64,000 nt of DNA from Promethearchaeota archaeon (GTDB lineage: Archaea; Asgardarchaeota; Lokiarchaeia; Sigyniarchaeales; SOKP01). The notes below the pieces were generated by a model. That model made no database searches, was not told the origin of the DNA, and saw nothing but the letters and a program-made list of their open reading frames with translations. Below, piece by piece: positions 10,354 through 16,784 of the stretch; position 1 is the first letter of the stretch, and each line of letters starts with the position of its first letter. A program made the position numbers and the translations under genes. Location of the stretch: positions 1,196,943 through 1,260,942 of the forward strand of contig JAHPZA010000006.1 of the NCBI GenBank assembly GCA_019058445.1, read 5' to 3'.

Positions 10354-11109
10354 TTAATCGCTATTAATATCATTATCTTTATTATCGTCGGAAGCAATAT
10401 TATCAAGGCCAAGTTGGGAAACCATGATTCTCTTCATTTCTTCTTTATTTTTAGGTAATCCAAACATTTCAGCATATTTATCTGTAGTAGTTAATTCATG
10501 AGATCTTCCTTTTTTAATAGCAAAAATTAAGTCATTATCAAGAAGATATTTAACATGTTCATAAGCTCCGCTCCCTCTTAGTTTAATAACTAAAGATTTA
10601 AGAATTGGCTGTTTTAATGCGATTACTGTTAAGGTTCTTAAGTATCTCTCGGCAATTGCCCCTCCTTTCGCAAATTTTGAAACTTTTTCAATAAATTCTG
10701 TTCTAAGAGCCATTTGGAAATCCTCACCAACCTTATTTATTACGAGAGCAGTGGATCGTTCTAGATACTCGAAAGCAAGTTCATTTATCAACTCTTCAAC
10801 TTCTTTTTTTGGAATCTCCAACCTTGTGTTTAATTCTTCAATACTTAAAGATCTACCCGAAACATAAAGAGAAGCTTCAATAAGATTTTTATGATAGTCT
10901 TTCACTTGTCTTGCAATCAGCTCTTTATCTGTTTCAACTGAATCCGATATAAGGCTTGTATTTTTATCATCGCTAATTTCGGTTTCATTAATTTCTTCAA
11001 TAGTTTCATCAGTTGTTTCCATACTTAGTTCATTAACCTCATCTTCTGGAGGTATTTCATTATCTTTCTTTTCAGAATCATCTTTTATTTCCTCATTAAA
11101 CTCATCCAT
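10354..11109 (-). CDS. scpB: segregation/condensation protein B (KITE), acidic N-terminal extension
   Basis: IEASLYVSG, TLTVIALKQPI, RG...HVKYL, TTDKYAEMFGL; operon with smc and scpA; ATG at 11109. Confidence 0.9.
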   Translation of the reverse strand: MDEFNEEIKDDSEKKDNEIPPEDEVNELSMETTDETIEEINETEISDDKNTSLISDSVETDKELIARQVKDYHKNLIEASLYVSGRSLSIEELNTRLEIPKKEVEELINELAFEYLERSTALVINKVGEDFQMALRTEFIEKVSKFAKGGAIAERYLRTLTVIALKQPILKSLVIKLRGSGAYEHVKYLLDNDLIFAIKKGRSHELTTTDKYAEMFGLPKNKEEMKRIMVSQLGLDNIASDDNKDNDINSD

Positions 11110-11137
11110 ACACAATCATCCTCTCTTTTGAATTTTT

Positions 11138-12136
11138 TTATTTCATACTAATTGAGATATCTTTGAACTCATCTGCTTGAAAAAGAGTTAATTTATTTCC
11201 AGTACTTAAAAACATTAATGCTAAAAACATTCTTACAAATGCAAATTTCCTCCCGATAGTACTTTCTTCTTCATTTTTTATTATATGTAATAGATCAAAA
11301 AAACTAGAATCTTTATTATTTAAATTAATCGTAGCTTTTATTCGATTATACCAACTTTCATGTAATTCCTCAACAGTTTGTTCTTTTCCGCTTATATGTT
11401 TTAAGAGTTCTTTGGGTAATTTCGCTTGAGATAACCTTCTCAGACGTTTTTGCTTTTGTTCTTCTTGTCTTAAGCGTCTCCTCCTTAATTTTTCTTTCTT
11501 TTGCATGGTTTCAATAATTGCAGCTCTCATAGCCTCAAATAATTCATCTTTAGTTGCTATTTGCATTTTAGGGCTAATTGGTTGAGGTAATGACTTAGGA
11601 ATTGTTCTTGAATGACGTTGTCTCAATTTTTCGAGTTCTTCCATCTTTTGAATTTGTTCCTCCTCTCGAATTATGCTAGAGATTTTAAAATGGTGCAAAT
11701 TTGCTGCCGTTCTTAATGCTATTCCAGAAATCTTGTAATTTATGAGCTCTTCTTCAAGCATATGATCAAAAAATTTATCTACTAATGCTGAGAGATCATA
11801 AAATGCGACTTGAGAATCTTTAGCTAAGTCAAGATCCAGTAATACCCTATATTTTGGTTTTTGCCAAAACTTTGGTTCAGCCTTGTCCCTTTGTATAAGA
11901 GGGGATTCTTCATCCTCTTCTTCAAAACCAGCAATTAATTCCTCTTCTAATTCTTCTTCTTGGGTTCGATCTACGAAATCGGGACTAGTTACTACGCCTT
12001 TTACTAACTCAACTATATCCTTCTTTTTCGCTTTTGATGGAATTTTAATATTGTTTTTATTACAAAATTCTCTTAACTGCTTAACTGTCCATTTATTAAA
12101 ATCAGTTTTTTCATTGATTTTTTCTTGATCTGAAAT
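11138..12136 (-). CDS. scpA: ScpA kleisin with N-terminal SAP/HeH-like module; probable ATT start
   Basis: Frame open 125 codons upstream of ATG 11761, back to ATT 12136 preceded by AGGTGA-N6; SGIALRTAANLHHFK (kleisin N helix) and FLALMFL...QADEFKDI (C-terminal wHTH). Confidence 0.85.
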   Translation of the reverse strand: MSDQEKINEKTDFNKWTVKQLREFCNKNNIKIPSKAKKKDIVELVKGVVTSPDFVDRTQEEELEEELIAGFEEEDEESPLIQRDKAEPKFWQKPKYRVLLDLDLAKDSQVAFYDLSALVDKFFDHMLEEELINYKISGIALRTAANLHHFKISSIIREEEQIQKMEELEKLRQRHSRTIPKSLPQPISPKMQIATKDELFEAMRAAIIETMQKKEKLRRRRLRQEEQKQKRLRRLSQAKLPKELLKHISGKEQTVEELHESWYNRIKATINLNNKDSSFFDLLHIIKNEEESTIGRKFAFVRMFLALMFLSTGNKLTLFQADEFKDISISMK

Positions 12137-12167: not shown

Positions 12168-15100
12168 TTAATTTTCCACTTTAGGAGGGACATCTTCTAA
12201 TTCCAACAATCTTTTCGCTTCTTCTTCTAAATCGACACTGAAAATATCTGTAATGCCCGATTGTTGCATAGAAACTCCGTAAATACGGTCTGCATTCACT
12301 ATATTTTCTTCTCTATGACTAATTACAAGGAATTGTGCCTGATCAGAGAATTCTTGTATTACAGTGCTAACGCGGTGAACATTCGGTCCATCAAGTGCCG
12401 CATCGATCTCATCCATTATATAAAATGGTGCGGGGTAAAATTCTTGGACGGCAAAGATAAAAGATAAAGCTACTAAGGTTTTCTCACCTCCGCTAAGAAT
12501 CTCCAATGAGGAGATCTTTTTTCCTCGAGGACGAGCTTCGATAGATATACCCCCTTCAAATGGTTTATCCGGTCTGTCAAGTATCATTTTAGCTGAGCCC
12601 CCAGGGGAGAGTTTCTGGAACACAGCACTAAACACTCTATTGATCTCATGATAAGCTGTCATAAATGTCCTTGTCTTTTCCAATTCTATCTTGTCTATCG
12701 CATCCAAAATAGACTTTCTTTCGCGCTGTATAGTCTGTCTGCGCATATCAATTTCATCGAATCTCTCCTTAACGGTATCATATTGTTCGATTGCTTTTAA
12801 ATTAACGGGCTCTAAGGCTCTTTTCTTTTTATTCGCAAGTGACATATCAGATTGTAATCCTTCCTCCGATAAATCCTCGGTTAAGGGGGGTAAGGTTCCA
12901 TAATCTTTAGATCTCTCGTATAGTGTTTCTATTTGATCTGCACAAATAATTTTTTTTGATTCATAATTATTCTTTTTAGAATTTTCCATAGAACGATCCG
13001 ATTTTAAATCAGTAATAACTTTTTGGTAATTTTTTTGTTTTTTCCATGATTCATCCTTTTCATTTATTAATTTATCAATTTCCTGTTGTTTCTCATCCTT
13101 TTTCTTAGTTTCTTCAATTAACTGATAATCAATTTTTTCTATTTCTTTTACTGTTAATTCTACTTGATTTTCAGTGTTTTTGATATCTTCATTATATATA
13201 ATGATTTGTTCTTCTCTTTCTTTATTTTTATGAATTTCATTTAGTTTTCCTTGGGTTTTTTGCAAGTTTTTATTAAATTTGTTTAAATTTTGTTGCGCTG
13301 TTTTTTGAGCCTCCAATTCTTTTTCTTTTTCTCCTCGAAAGGTATCAATAATTTTTTGGATTTCATCTATGTTTTTTTGAATTTCTTCAACTTCAGAATT
13401 AAAGGTTTGTATATTTTTATGACTCTCTTCAATATTTTTATTGGCATCCATGTTTTCCTTAGTTATTTCTTCGATGGAATTAATAATTCTCATAACATTA
13501 TCTAGTGCTCTTAGTTTATCCCTTATCTCTTCTAATTTTTTGTTTTCTTCATCAATTTCTTTTTGTATGTTTTCAATAATTTCCCAGAATTTTTCTTTAT
13601 TTCCCGCAAGATTTTGAATTTCTTTATCTAAGGAGGTTAAATCTAATTCTACTTTATTTATACTCCCTTCTGTGAGAAGGATTTGAGCTTTTTTCTCCTC
13701 ATTATTTTTATTTAAATTATTTATGCTATTGTCTAATTCATTAATATTTTCATATAAATTTTGAATCCCCTGAAGCTCCTGAAGTTTTTCTTGAATATTA
13801 TCATACTCCTTTTGAGCTTTATCAATCTCATCTTGAATCTCAGATATCTCTTTCCAATAATTATCTTTAATATTTTTTAATTCATTTATATCATTATTAA
13901 TTTGTTCGAGATCACTTCCTTTTTCATTTATGCTGGCATTTCTCTCATTAATTTCGAGGGTATATTTTTCAATCCTCTCATTGATCTCCTTAATTCTTTT
14001 ATCAACCTCCTCCAGTCTTTTGTTTGAGATGGTAAGATTCTCGGTATCATGTGTTTTTTTAAGATTAATTTCCGTTAAATTTTTCTCAACCTCAGTTAAA
14101 TCATCCTCTTGAGTTTTAATGCTACTAGAAATTTCTTCCATTTGTTTGTAAAGTTCTTGAGATTTTGACATGGTTAGTTTTCTTAGGGAGATATGGACAT
14201 TTTCTAATATTTCCATTAAATCCATAACAAAAGCATCAAAATTGGAGGTCGATTCATGTACTGCCACATCAGCAGATTCTTTAACTTTACTAATAAGGTG
14301 TGTTATTGTGGAGTCCGCATTATCTGTAAATAAAGTTAACGTTTGTAATATCGAGTCAAGCATGTTTGACATTTCAGCCATTTCTTCACTCTCACTACTA
14401 ACGCTCTCCATAGTTTTCATTATATCAATAATATCTAACACGAATTTTTTAAAATCTTCGGCAGAAGTTTCAATAGCTTCAGCATTAGACTGTTGTATAT
14501 TGGCCTTAATAGATTCTACTGATACGTTTATATTTTGAGTGAGCATGTTTAAAATTTGAAGTATTCCGGTTACATCGTCTTTACTTTTATCATACTCTTC
14601 CTCTGAATTTTCTATCTTTTTTAAAAGAGCTTCTTTTTCTTTTGTAAGCTCATCTAAACGTCTTTGGATATTCTCTTTTTTAATGATAAATGTCTCTGAA
14701 TCTTTCTCAGATTTTGAAATATTAGTATTTAAGCTACTTACACTTAAATCTAAATTACGTTTCTCGCGCTCTAAATTAGTTAATTCTTTCTTAAATATTT
14801 TTAATTCAGTATTCATATTAGAAATCTTGCCTTGATTATCAATAATCTCGGCATCAATAGCCTCTTTTTTTAAATTTAGTAACTCTAAATTTTGTTCATT
14901 CTTTCGATAAGCAGAATCTTCATCTTTGGATTTCTTTTTTAAATCGCTTAAGTTTTTAAGGATATTTTCCTTTTCATGTAGGAGAGCCTTTACAATTTCC
15001 TCTATTTCTTTACCCTTGCTCAATTCCTCGATCTTTTGGATAGTTCTTTCTTTTTTTTGGTTTGCCTTTTTAATACTTTCATTATTCATCTTAATTTCAG

Positions 15101-16622
15101 TAGTTAATGAAGATAATGTCGATTTTAAATCAGTTAACTTAGAGTTTAAAGCAGTTTTTTTGGTTTGAACCAAATTAATATCATTTTCCAGATTTCTCTG
15201 TTTCAGATTTTCATCTGAGATTTTAACTTTAAGCTGCTCAATTTTTGTTTTAATTTCATTTTCAATATTTATAGTAGCTTTTCTTGCTTCTTCTATACTT
15301 TCATGATCTCCTTTTAATGATTCTAATTCAACCTCTAATTTTTCTTTTTTAATTTCATTCTTTTTTATATTATCTTTAAGCACCTTAATTTTTGATTCAT
15401 TAGATGAAATATTTTGTTTCACTTTTGATATCTCTGAGTTGAACTTAGATTTTTCATCTTCATTACTTTTAATTTTATTATCTAGTTCTGCTTGATTTTG
15501 TTGTCGTTTTTCAATTTCCTTTTTTGCCTCTTCAATTCTATTTTCTATTTCAGCGATATCTTTCGTTACATCTTCTATTAGGGAGTCAAATGTCTGACCC
15601 TCTTCGAGTTTCATTAAAAGTTTTTCTAATTGTTCTTTATCAATAGTTAATTTCTCAATTGACTTTTTTGCAATGCTCAAGGTTGTCTGGTTTGATGATA
15701 ATTCAGTTTTTGTTTGGGTGATAGCTTCATTTAACTCTTCTCTTTCTTTTTCTTTAACATTTATGTTACTTTGTATATTATCCATAACCAGGGATTCTTG
15801 TTTTAATAGTTCTTCTTGTCTCGTAATTTTTTCTTCAAATTCTTCCAATACTTTATTAACATCTTCAATTTTCCTATCTAATTCTTCTTCTTCTTTCTGA
15901 TATTGTGCAATTTTTAAAGCAAGTAACTGAGCATTATAAAAATTAATTTTATCATCAAGTTCTTTCCATGCTAAGGCGTCATTTTTCTCTTTTTCAACTT
16001 TTTTTAGTTGAGTAGATACCTCCTTAAAGATTGCTTCGAATTGTCCCAAATCTCGTTCAGCTTTTTCTAACTCTTTCAAGGTAGAATCTTTCATTTCGTC
16101 ATATTTTTGGAGGCCAATTAATTCTTCGATAAATTTACGTCTATCCTCTGAATTCATATGAGTTAATTCAACTATCTTCCCTTGTAATACAAATTGATTG
16201 CTACCATCAGGATCAACATTTGCAGTTGCCAACGCATTAAGAATTTGTTGTCTTGTTGCCTTTTTTTCATTCATTTTATATCCCCCACCTCCGCCCCTTT
16301 TAATGATTCTGGTAATTGTAAAATCCCCATCACTACCACCTGGAAAAATTCCATCTGAATTGTCAAAATGTATAGTAACCGAAGCGCGATTAGAAGGGTT
16401 CTTTCCTCTTGAACCTGCAAATATTAAATCTTCTAAACTTTTTGCACGCATTGTTTTTTTACTTAATCTCCCTAATGCAAAACATAAGGCATCAATAATG
16501 TTGGATTTTCCAGCACCATTCGGTCCTACTATGCAGGTAAACCCACTTGAAAGTTTAATTGTAACCGTCCGATCTCCAAAGCTTTTAAACCCACTCATGG
16601 ACACTTTTTTAATATAGGTCAG
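12168..16622 (-). CDS. smc: chromosome segregation protein SMC (long, atypical hinge); probable CTG start
   Basis: (M)TYIKKVSMSGFKSF, GPNGAGKSN Walker A, VLQG Q-loop, PVNLKA, LSGGEK signature, MDEIDAALD, ISH; SD GAGGAGA 7 nt before CTG 16622. Confidence 0.95.
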   Translation of the reverse strand: MTYIKKVSMSGFKSFGDRTVTIKLSSGFTCIVGPNGAGKSNIIDALCFALGRLSKKTMRAKSLEDLIFAGSRGKNPSNRASVTIHFDNSDGIFPGGSDGDFTITRIIKRGGGGGYKMNEKKATRQQILNALATANVDPDGSNQFVLQGKIVELTHMNSEDRRKFIEELIGLQKYDEMKDSTLKELEKAERDLGQFEAIFKEVSTQLKKVEKEKNDALAWKELDDKINFYNAQLLALKIAQYQKEEEELDRKIEDVNKVLEEFEEKITRQEELLKQESLVMDNIQSNINVKEKEREELNEAITQTKTELSSNQTTLSIAKKSIEKLTIDKEQLEKLLMKLEEGQTFDSLIEDVTKDIAEIENRIEEAKKEIEKRQQNQAELDNKIKSNEDEKSKFNSEISKVKQNISSNESKIKVLKDNIKKNEIKKEKLEVELESLKGDHESIEEARKATINIENEIKTKIEQLKVKISDENLKQRNLENDINLVQTKKTALNSKLTDLKSTLSSLTTEIKMNNESIKKANQKKERTIQKIEELSKGKEIEEIVKALLHEKENILKNLSDLKKKSKDEDSAYRKNEQNLELLNLKKEAIDAEIIDNQGKISNMNTELKIFKKELTNLEREKRNLDLSVSSLNTNISKSEKDSETFIIKKENIQRRLDELTKEKEALLKKIENSEEEYDKSKDDVTGILQILNMLTQNINVSVESIKANIQQSNAEAIETSAEDFKKFVLDIIDIMKTMESVSSESEEMAEMSNMLDSILQTLTLFTDNADSTITHLISKVKESADVAVHESTSNFDAFVMDLMEILENVHISLRKLTMSKSQELYKQMEEISSSIKTQEDDLTEVEKNLTEINLKKTHDTENLTISNKRLEEVDKRIKEINERIEKYTLEINERNASINEKGSDLEQINNDINELKNIKDNYWKEISEIQDEIDKAQKEYDNIQEKLQELQGIQNLYENINELDNSINNLNKNNEEKKAQILLTEGSINKVELDLTSLDKEIQNLAGNKEKFWEIIENIQKEIDEENKKLEEIRDKLRALDNVMRIINSIEEITKENMDANKNIEESHKNIQTFNSEVEEIQKNIDEIQKIIDTFRGEKEKELEAQKTAQQNLNKFNKNLQKTQGKLNEIHKNKEREEQIIIYNEDIKNTENQVELTVKEIEKIDYQLIEETKKKDEKQQEIDKLINEKDESWKKQKNYQKVITDLKSDRSMENSKKNNYESKKIICADQIETLYERSKDYGTLPPLTEDLSEEGLQSDMSLANKKKRALEPVNLKAIEQYDTVKERFDEIDMRRQTIQRERKSILDAIDKIELEKTRTFMTAYHEINRVFSAVFQKLSPGGSAKMILDRPDKPFEGGISIEARPRGKKISSLEILSGGEKTLVALSFIFAVQEFYPAPFYIMDEIDAALDGPNVHRVSTVIQEFSDQAQFLVISHREENIVNADRIYGVSMQQSGITDIFSVDLEEEAKRLLELEDVPPKVEN

Positions 16623-16784
16623 AATTAGATCTCCTCTTATTCCATAGTTATTAAAAATATAGAAAAATGCAAGTTTAAATCTTTTTTTTTTAATTCGAAA
16701 ATAAGTTAATTTTCAGTTACTTAATTTTTTTAATAATAAAAACCTTTAATCTCATCAAAAAAAAAAATAATTGGAATTTTTTAG

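Follow-up and report, generated by a model that had tools for sequence, protein, structure and literature searches.

Smc proteins normally dimerize via an alpha/beta hinge with conserved glycines, a domain regarded as a defining and near-universal part of SMC proteins. The hinge of MukB, whose apex domain is small and divergent, is still an alpha/beta dimerization domain. Proposed functions of the hinge include a gate for DNA entry, a site of DNA binding, and a gate for the bypass of obstacles (e.g., PMC12647877). The Rad50 hook is reported to be able to replace the Smc hinge (PMC6969161), and Smc-Rad50 hook chimeras show that Smc can work with an apex other than the hinge (PMC5344682). Hinge-less SMC homologues, probably actinobacterial, have also been described from ocean metagenomes (PMC12153180).

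We analyzed an smc gene in a 64,000-nucleotide stretch of DNA from a Promethearchaeota archaeon (the window). Its product resembles canonical Smc from Smc-ScpAB complexes (Pyrococcus, B. subtilis) in its heads, in arms that are colinear up to the hinge junction, in the adjacent ScpA and ScpB genes, and in its orthology according to head-domain trees. However, it is ~1484 aa long instead of ~1190 aa, scores under the TIGR02169 cut-off, gives no match to PF06470 (SMC_hinge), and carries ~145 additional coiled-coil residues per strand as well as a duplicated acidic tip. With Rad50/SbcC, its zinc hook, and the engineered hook Smc proteins (PMC5344682 and PMC6969161), the long Smc shares a coiled-coil fold-back apex with no globular hinge. 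The Rad50/SbcC apex is a small dimerizing element, and the likeness would extend to this property if the long Smc tip dimerizes, as we infer below. In contrast to Rad50/SbcC, its centre contains neither a CxxC motif nor any cysteine, its heads are of the SMC type (586-618 bits versus ~90 bits), and its neighbors are scpA and scpB rather than Mre11/SbcD. The ocean hinge-less SMC proteins are bacterial and belong to an unrelated lineage, whereas here the lineage's own Smc orthologue is affected; PMC12153180 mentions no conserved duplicated tip module and no association with ScpAB. MukB is likewise an SMC-like condensin with a divergent apex, but its partners are MukEF and it has no sequence relation to the long Smc. 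A literature search, which included SMC-evolution papers sampling Asgard archaea, returned no paper on a hinge-less Lokiarchaeal Smc.

The long Smc is encoded together with ScpA and ScpB

The genes and the two ATPase head halves are located in the window as follows:

smc, 12168..16622, minus strand: ~1484 aa if the start is the CTG at 16622-16620; open reading frame and family matches
N-terminal ATPase head half, 16095..16604, minus strand: residues 1-170; Walker A GPNGAGKSN
C-terminal ATPase head half, 12171..12869, minus strand: residues ~1246-1478; LSGGEK, Walker B FYIMDEID, H-loop SHR
scpA (kleisin), 11138..12136, minus strand: ~332 aa if the start is the ATT at 12136-12134
scpB (kite), 10354..11115, minus strand: PF04079, 108 bits; TIGR00281, 93.5 bits, above the cut-off

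An earlier reading of the DNA made from the letters alone (the sequence-only reading) had described textbook SMC heads in a gene sitting with scpA and scpB, and this description held. The Walker A motif, Q-loop, LSGGE/Q signature, Walker B/D-loop, and H-loop are all legible in the translation, Pfam returned SMC_N (128 bits) and generic AAA families but nothing else, and scpA and scpB lie directly downstream. The protein scored 585.9 bits with TIGR02168, above the cut-off of 567.35, and 618.2 bits with TIGR02169, below the cut-off of 729.4. Rad50 models gave ~88-92 bits, far under their cut-offs of 700-1087, the ASRP model NF045487 gave 140.7 bits against a cut-off of 300, and the RecN models of NCBIfam scored far lower than TIGR02168 and TIGR02169. 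Matches to PDB sequences were confined to the two head halves, with Pyrococcus Smc 5xei as the best and 4i99 also found (E value of 2.6e-114 for the Pyrococcus Smc head). Between the two main families of the order, head identity reaches 67% in the N-terminal half and 77% in the C-terminal half. Judged by these motifs and matches, the ATPase heads are intact.

The conserved N terminus of Smc is encoded at window positions 16620-16625 with no ATG, GTG, or TTG. The first GTG of the frame, at 16604, would yield a protein of 1478 aa. However, orthologues start with MTYIK, which corresponds to L-T-Y-I-K located six codons upstream of this GTG, and a GAGGAG motif lies 8 nt upstream of the CTG at 16622-16620. 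Based on this correspondence, translation probably starts at that CTG, or at the preceding ATT, for a product of ~1484 aa. The conserved N terminus of ScpA, at 12134-12136, also comes with no ATG, GTG, or TTG. The scpA open frame reaches 125 codons upstream of the first ATG, and this stretch contains the kleisin N-domain and a HeH/Ish1/SAP-like motif. Translation of scpA probably starts at the ATT just after GGTGA, the TGA of which is an in-frame stop.

PF02616 matched ScpA with an E value of 2e-4. At its N terminus (window 11762-12136, minus strand), ScpA carries a HeH/Ish1/SAP-like helix-extension-helix (PF10281, 30.5 bits, above the cut-off; HeH, E value of 3.7e-5) followed by an acidic linker, and when compared by tblastn, this part of the protein found an alignment in a single further genus (L033). 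Across the order, scpA lies directly 3′ of the long smc in 9/9 loci, and the smc-scpA(-scpB) order is conserved, with the same arrangement in other Asgard archaea. ScpA and ScpB are thus annotated here as the putative partners of the long Smc.

The Smc centre contains no canonical hinge

The region in which the sequence-only reading had recognized no canonical hinge, positions 14150-14590 on the minus strand, corresponds to Smc residues ~672-818, and all four sequence strings quoted in that reading are present there. PF06470 did not match the whole Smc even at an E value of ≤1, did not match 17 orthologous Smc centres at an E value of ≤10, and was absent from all 120 best homologues listed. 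As positive controls, the same model gave 39 bits in another gene of the same genome and 107-116 bits in Smc proteins from other families of Asgard archaea, and it found a hinge in 11 of 14 control genomes. The stretch that separates the two heads (residues ~180-1240) lacks proline as well as any cluster of glycines, and the 136-aa centre contains a single glycine, no proline, and none of the three cysteines of the protein. A CxxC zinc hook, the other apex that had been reported missing, is therefore absent from the centre as well.

A profile-profile comparison set the alignment of the centre (A2) against 15 aligned Asgard hinges (A3), in which Gly and Pro residues are invariant. The hhalign probability was 0.35%, and the sole aligned stretch, which covered the G-I-L / G-I-Y entry motif over 13 columns, was not significant. 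AlphaFold2, run on Smc residues 581-920 with 17 orthologues, returned a purely helical hairpin with no strands and a mean pLDDT of 83 (~95 in the flanks, ~70 in the tip, and <50 at residues 735-741). Foldseek matched this model solely to antiparallel coiled-coil hairpins, with the MukB elbow at the top and a chemoreceptor second, followed by dynein stalks and fragments of Rad50 and Smc arms. The midpoint is thus predicted to be helical and is nearly free of glycine, as had been proposed. An SMC_hinge match and a predicted canonical hinge fold, both of which had been named as findings contrary to that proposal, were looked for, and neither was obtained.

A canonical hinge might still be present but too diverged for sequence methods, and the weak hinges of the sister-lineage orthologues (21.8-31.6 bits) lend some weight to this idea, since they indicate that the domain is drifting in the class. 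However, a hinge of any degree of divergence is difficult to reconcile with a model devoid of strands, with one glycine and no proline in 136 aa where the Asgard hinges have invariant Gly and Pro, with the hhalign result, and with the internal helical duplication of the centre described below. We regard the cryptic hinge as nearly excluded and conclude that the canonical alpha/beta hinge is truly absent.

A duplicated helical tip at the end of extended arms

The region between the heads can be divided into the following parts:

N-arm, 15015..16094, minus strand: residues ~171-530; colinear with canonical Smc arms
N-strand arm extension, 14577..15014, minus strand: residues ~531-676; no counterpart in canonical Smc; continuous helix in the AlphaFold2 model (pLDDT ~95)
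Tip repeat 1, 14409..14585, minus strand: residues ~674-732; from hhalign of the halves
Ser/Glu-rich turn, 14373..14408, minus strand: residues ~733-744; predicted hairpin apex, non-helical at 735-741 in the AlphaFold2 model
Tip repeat 2, 14196..14372, minus strand: residues ~745-803; invariant polar residues, including an S-T-x-x-F-D motif
C-strand arm extension, 13725..14168, minus strand: residues ~813-960; alignment to the canonical C-arm resumes at ~880-960

BLASTP against a canonical Asgard Smc, in which the hinge spans 533-645, paired residues 3-530 of the long Smc with 9-528 and residues 880-1464 with 676-1182. Thus, ~350 helical residues occupy the place of the ~150-residue canonical hinge; the protein gains ~145 coiled-coil residues per strand plus the tip, and its arms are ~40% longer. 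Arms colinear with the canonical ones, together with the hairpin predicted at residues 581-920, describe a long antiparallel intramolecular coiled coil. The change is a ~350-aa helical hairpin made of arm extension and tip and does not amount to a one-for-one exchange of domains.

The two halves of the centre (A2) are homologous to each other, with an hhalign probability of 97.7% and an E value of 1.6e-12 over 59 columns, and a reversed-sequence control gave nothing. The tip (residues ~677-812) therefore reads as two tandem copies of one helical unit of ~59 aa on either side of the Ser/Glu-rich turn. When the two main families are compared, the tip is 33% identical, the extensions 21-24%, and the canonical arms 29-40%. 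Conserved hydrophobic columns make up 31% of the tip versus 16-17% of the flanks, and charged residues 25% versus 41%. These contrasts with the flanks suggest that the tip is under selection and likely buried, although the heads, and the canonical hinge among Asgard lineages (A3), are more conserved. Its invariant positions include polar residues (K, Q, S, D, T, and N), and its net charge lies between -14 and -20 in 17/17 orthologues. Searches for relatives of the centre among known folds returned sub-threshold helical matches only, i.e., helical bundles among PDB sequences (best E value of 0.015) and the apolipoprotein, GIT1_C, talin rod, and MCPsignal families in Pfam for the 17 centres, while the best score in the ESM Atlas, 0.82, was under the useful range.

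The long Smc occurs across one order and derives from a hinge-bearing form

A profile of the tip matched 99 of 113 other genomes of the order, distributed as 88/102 in the family of the source genome (f1), 10/10 in f2, and 1/1 in f4. It matched none of the seven genomes from other orders of the class, whose orthologous Smc proteins are ~1190 aa long and have a hinge. The distinct architecture that had been postulated for this lineage therefore extends over the order. The source names of the homologues are Lokiarchaeia/Promethearchaeota, nearly all long Smc open frames measure 1475-1500 aa, and the Smc proteins of other Asgard families are ~1190-1220 aa long with strong hinges. An assembly artefact was considered and ruled out, given that the architecture occurs in more than 100 independent assemblies (JGI, ENA, NCBI, and Logan) at 1474-1500 aa. 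The long form is also found in two single-contig genomes.

In head-domain trees, the long Smc proteins form one clade (100/100 support) on a stem of 0.72-0.74, sister (94/94) to the canonical-length Smc proteins of family f24 and of the sister order in the class. These closest orthologues have weak but recognizable hinges (PF06470, 21.8-31.6 bits), which suggests that the domain was already drifting before its replacement. Shortened or degenerate hinges can be seen in L042 (G134, f24) and in L056 and L057 (f32). Taken together, the head trees and the conserved smc-scpA order identify the long form as the vertical orthologue of the lineage's Smc, in which the hinge was replaced on the stem of the order. 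Because the sister-order orthologues keep their hinge, the hinge-less state of Lokiarchaea is derived. It should consequently not be read as the ancestor of the eukaryotic SMC1-4 architecture, and it matters for how SMC evolution around the emergence of eukaryotes is reconstructed.

Other SMC-family genes in the order and its relatives

A second Smc paralogue, ~1200 aa long and with a strong hinge, is present in six genomes of the order, two of which belong to the genus of the source genome. In L034-L037 (G005, G016, G025, and G006), the hinge scores 107-116 bits and a ScpB-like gene is adjacent, with no ScpA in between. This paralogue has a patchy distribution in the order and was seen in 5/23 family genomes with matches. 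A hinge-bearing Smc with canonical heads was found neither in the source genome, which is 92.6% complete so that such a paralogue could have been missed, nor beside the long form in most of the genomes searched. The sole hinge match in the source genome, a weak one (39 bits), belongs to a divergent 1151-aa SMC5/6-like gene (L006; G000:C6:621827-625180, minus strand) with the divergent head motif G-P-N-W-S-G-K-T. This gene probably corresponds to the archaeal paralogue related to SMC5/6 that PMC8665677 reports.

Since a hinge-bearing paralogue exists in some genomes of the order, the long form could have a specialized role. In its strongest version, the long Smc would be a neofunctionalized, lineage-specific variant devoted, for instance, to defence, repair, or plasmid handling, with other SMC proteins organizing the chromosome. 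The long stem branch (0.72-0.74), the paralogue with its adjacent ScpB-like gene, and the SMC5/6-like gene of the source genome are all compatible with such a scenario. Nonetheless, we judge it very unlikely: the tree makes the long form the orthologue, and this form retains the smc-scpA-scpB operon that is usual in other Asgard archaea, has strongly constrained heads, and is present in 88/102 family genomes, compared to 5/23 genomes with matches for the paralogue.

A different apex is found in one Smc of the sister order (P0164; L058:345-4115, plus strand; G183). This 1257-aa protein has SMC-type heads (TIGR02169, 581 bits, versus 74 bits for Rad50), gives no hinge match, and contains a central F-C-K-T-C-P-H (CxxC) motif near the midpoint of its arms. 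Its sequence suggests a naturally occurring Smc whose apex is a zinc hook similar to that of Rad50. A search with its apex region matched P0164 itself alone.

A dimerizing hairpin as the probable substitute for the hinge

We lean, by a little, towards the long Smc being an archaeal condensin orthologue that works with ScpAB and in which the hinge has been replaced by a dimerizing helical hairpin. On the stem of the order, the alpha/beta hinge (~150 aa) would have given way to a ~350-aa helical hairpin, each coiled-coil strand being lengthened by ~145 residues and the arm ending in a conserved, acidic tip in which a short Ser/Glu turn links two ~59-aa helical repeats arranged in tandem. Because the heads and the kleisin and kite partners are intact, Smc-ScpAB would most likely still act as an ATP-driven DNA-organizing ring or rod. 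The tip would most likely take over the constitutive dimerization of the hinge, with two hairpin tips packing into a four-helix bundle, just as the Rad50 hook can stand in for the hinge.

That the tip dimerizes, probably as a four-helix bundle, is suggested by its composition and by analogy. Its hydrophobic face is widened and conserved, its charge is low, and it forms a local conservation peak; SMC-like proteins have a general need for a dimer interface at the apex; and hinge and Rad50 hook are interchangeable (PMC5344682 and PMC6969161). The chemoreceptor (MCP) hairpin 2ch7, similarly a long helical hairpin of low charge with many small and hydrophobic residues, dimerizes into a four-helix bundle. 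The parallel with this receptor is one of analogy only, as there is no sequence homology to the Smc tip (MCPsignal, E value of 0.77). Since the AlphaFold2 confidence in the tip is only ~70, the packing of the tip is uncertain. A homodimer prediction with two copies of residues 621-880 (alignment A1), run without controls, scored 0.01, which speaks neither for nor against binding.

Alternatively, the tip could be a docking site, the dimer being held instead by head engagement, the kleisin bridge, and zipping of the arms. As a candidate partner, the Arg/Lys-rich tract of ScpA could bind the acidic tip after folding at an elbow, and in family f2 the tip might bind non-SMC proteins that contain the same module. 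The strongly acidic character of the tip (-14 to -20), its invariant polar residues, and the basic tract in ScpA would all suit a docking surface, as would the two copies of the module in a Lys-tailed non-SMC family of ~1000-1180 aa. However, this family was not found in the source genome or in f1, where the tip is nevertheless conserved, and to our knowledge every well-studied SMC-like protein possesses an apex dimerization element. We thus consider docking in place of dimerization unlikely, though worth keeping in view.

The tip module in a non-SMC protein family

The family in question emerged from a profile search of 1.84 billion representative proteins, which yielded 40 matches in two groups. 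The first group comprises Smc proteins of ~1480 aa, and the second is one family of non-SMC proteins, ~920-1180 aa long, in which Pfam recognizes no domain. In members of the latter, one double module lies near the N terminus and another ~260 residues further on; after them come a beta-rich region and a Lys-rich tail of T-A-K-K repeats. Examples are L029:500-3631, minus strand (P0124, G032), L030, and L031. Among the genomes searched, the family was seen only in f2. AlphaFold2 predicted two helical hairpins for the N-terminal 520 aa of P0124, which hold two double modules (pLDDT of 86.5 and pTM of 0.57), and Foldseek found only poor matches to this model (TM <0.2).

A more far-reaching interpretation would make the module a Lokiarchaeales-specific protein-protein interface that closes the hinge-less Smc-ScpAB ring and perhaps docks the apex onto chromatin-bound partners via the Lys-tailed non-SMC proteins of some lineages. 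We view it as improbable. If it were true, the apex of an SMC motor would be an adaptor socket and not a DNA gate; together with the CxxC-apex paralogue of the sister order, it would also imply that the SMC apex was replaced repeatedly within the class.

Whichever function the tip serves, an entire Asgard order runs a Smc-ScpAB orthologue with no hinge, which provides a natural test of what Smc can do without among the functions of the hinge. It also offers a new helical module whose pairing is testable in vitro, and the order may include cultured strains.

Arm growth

Natural Smc arm lengths step by ~91-100 aa (PMC5344682). The long Smc has ~208-218 extra helical residues per strand, which would correspond to about two such steps. 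In the C-arm, Trp 917, 1007, and 1187 (window 13044-13856, minus strand) occur in K-D/E-x-x-W contexts with 90- and 180-residue spacing, a pattern compatible with arm growth in units of ~90 aa.
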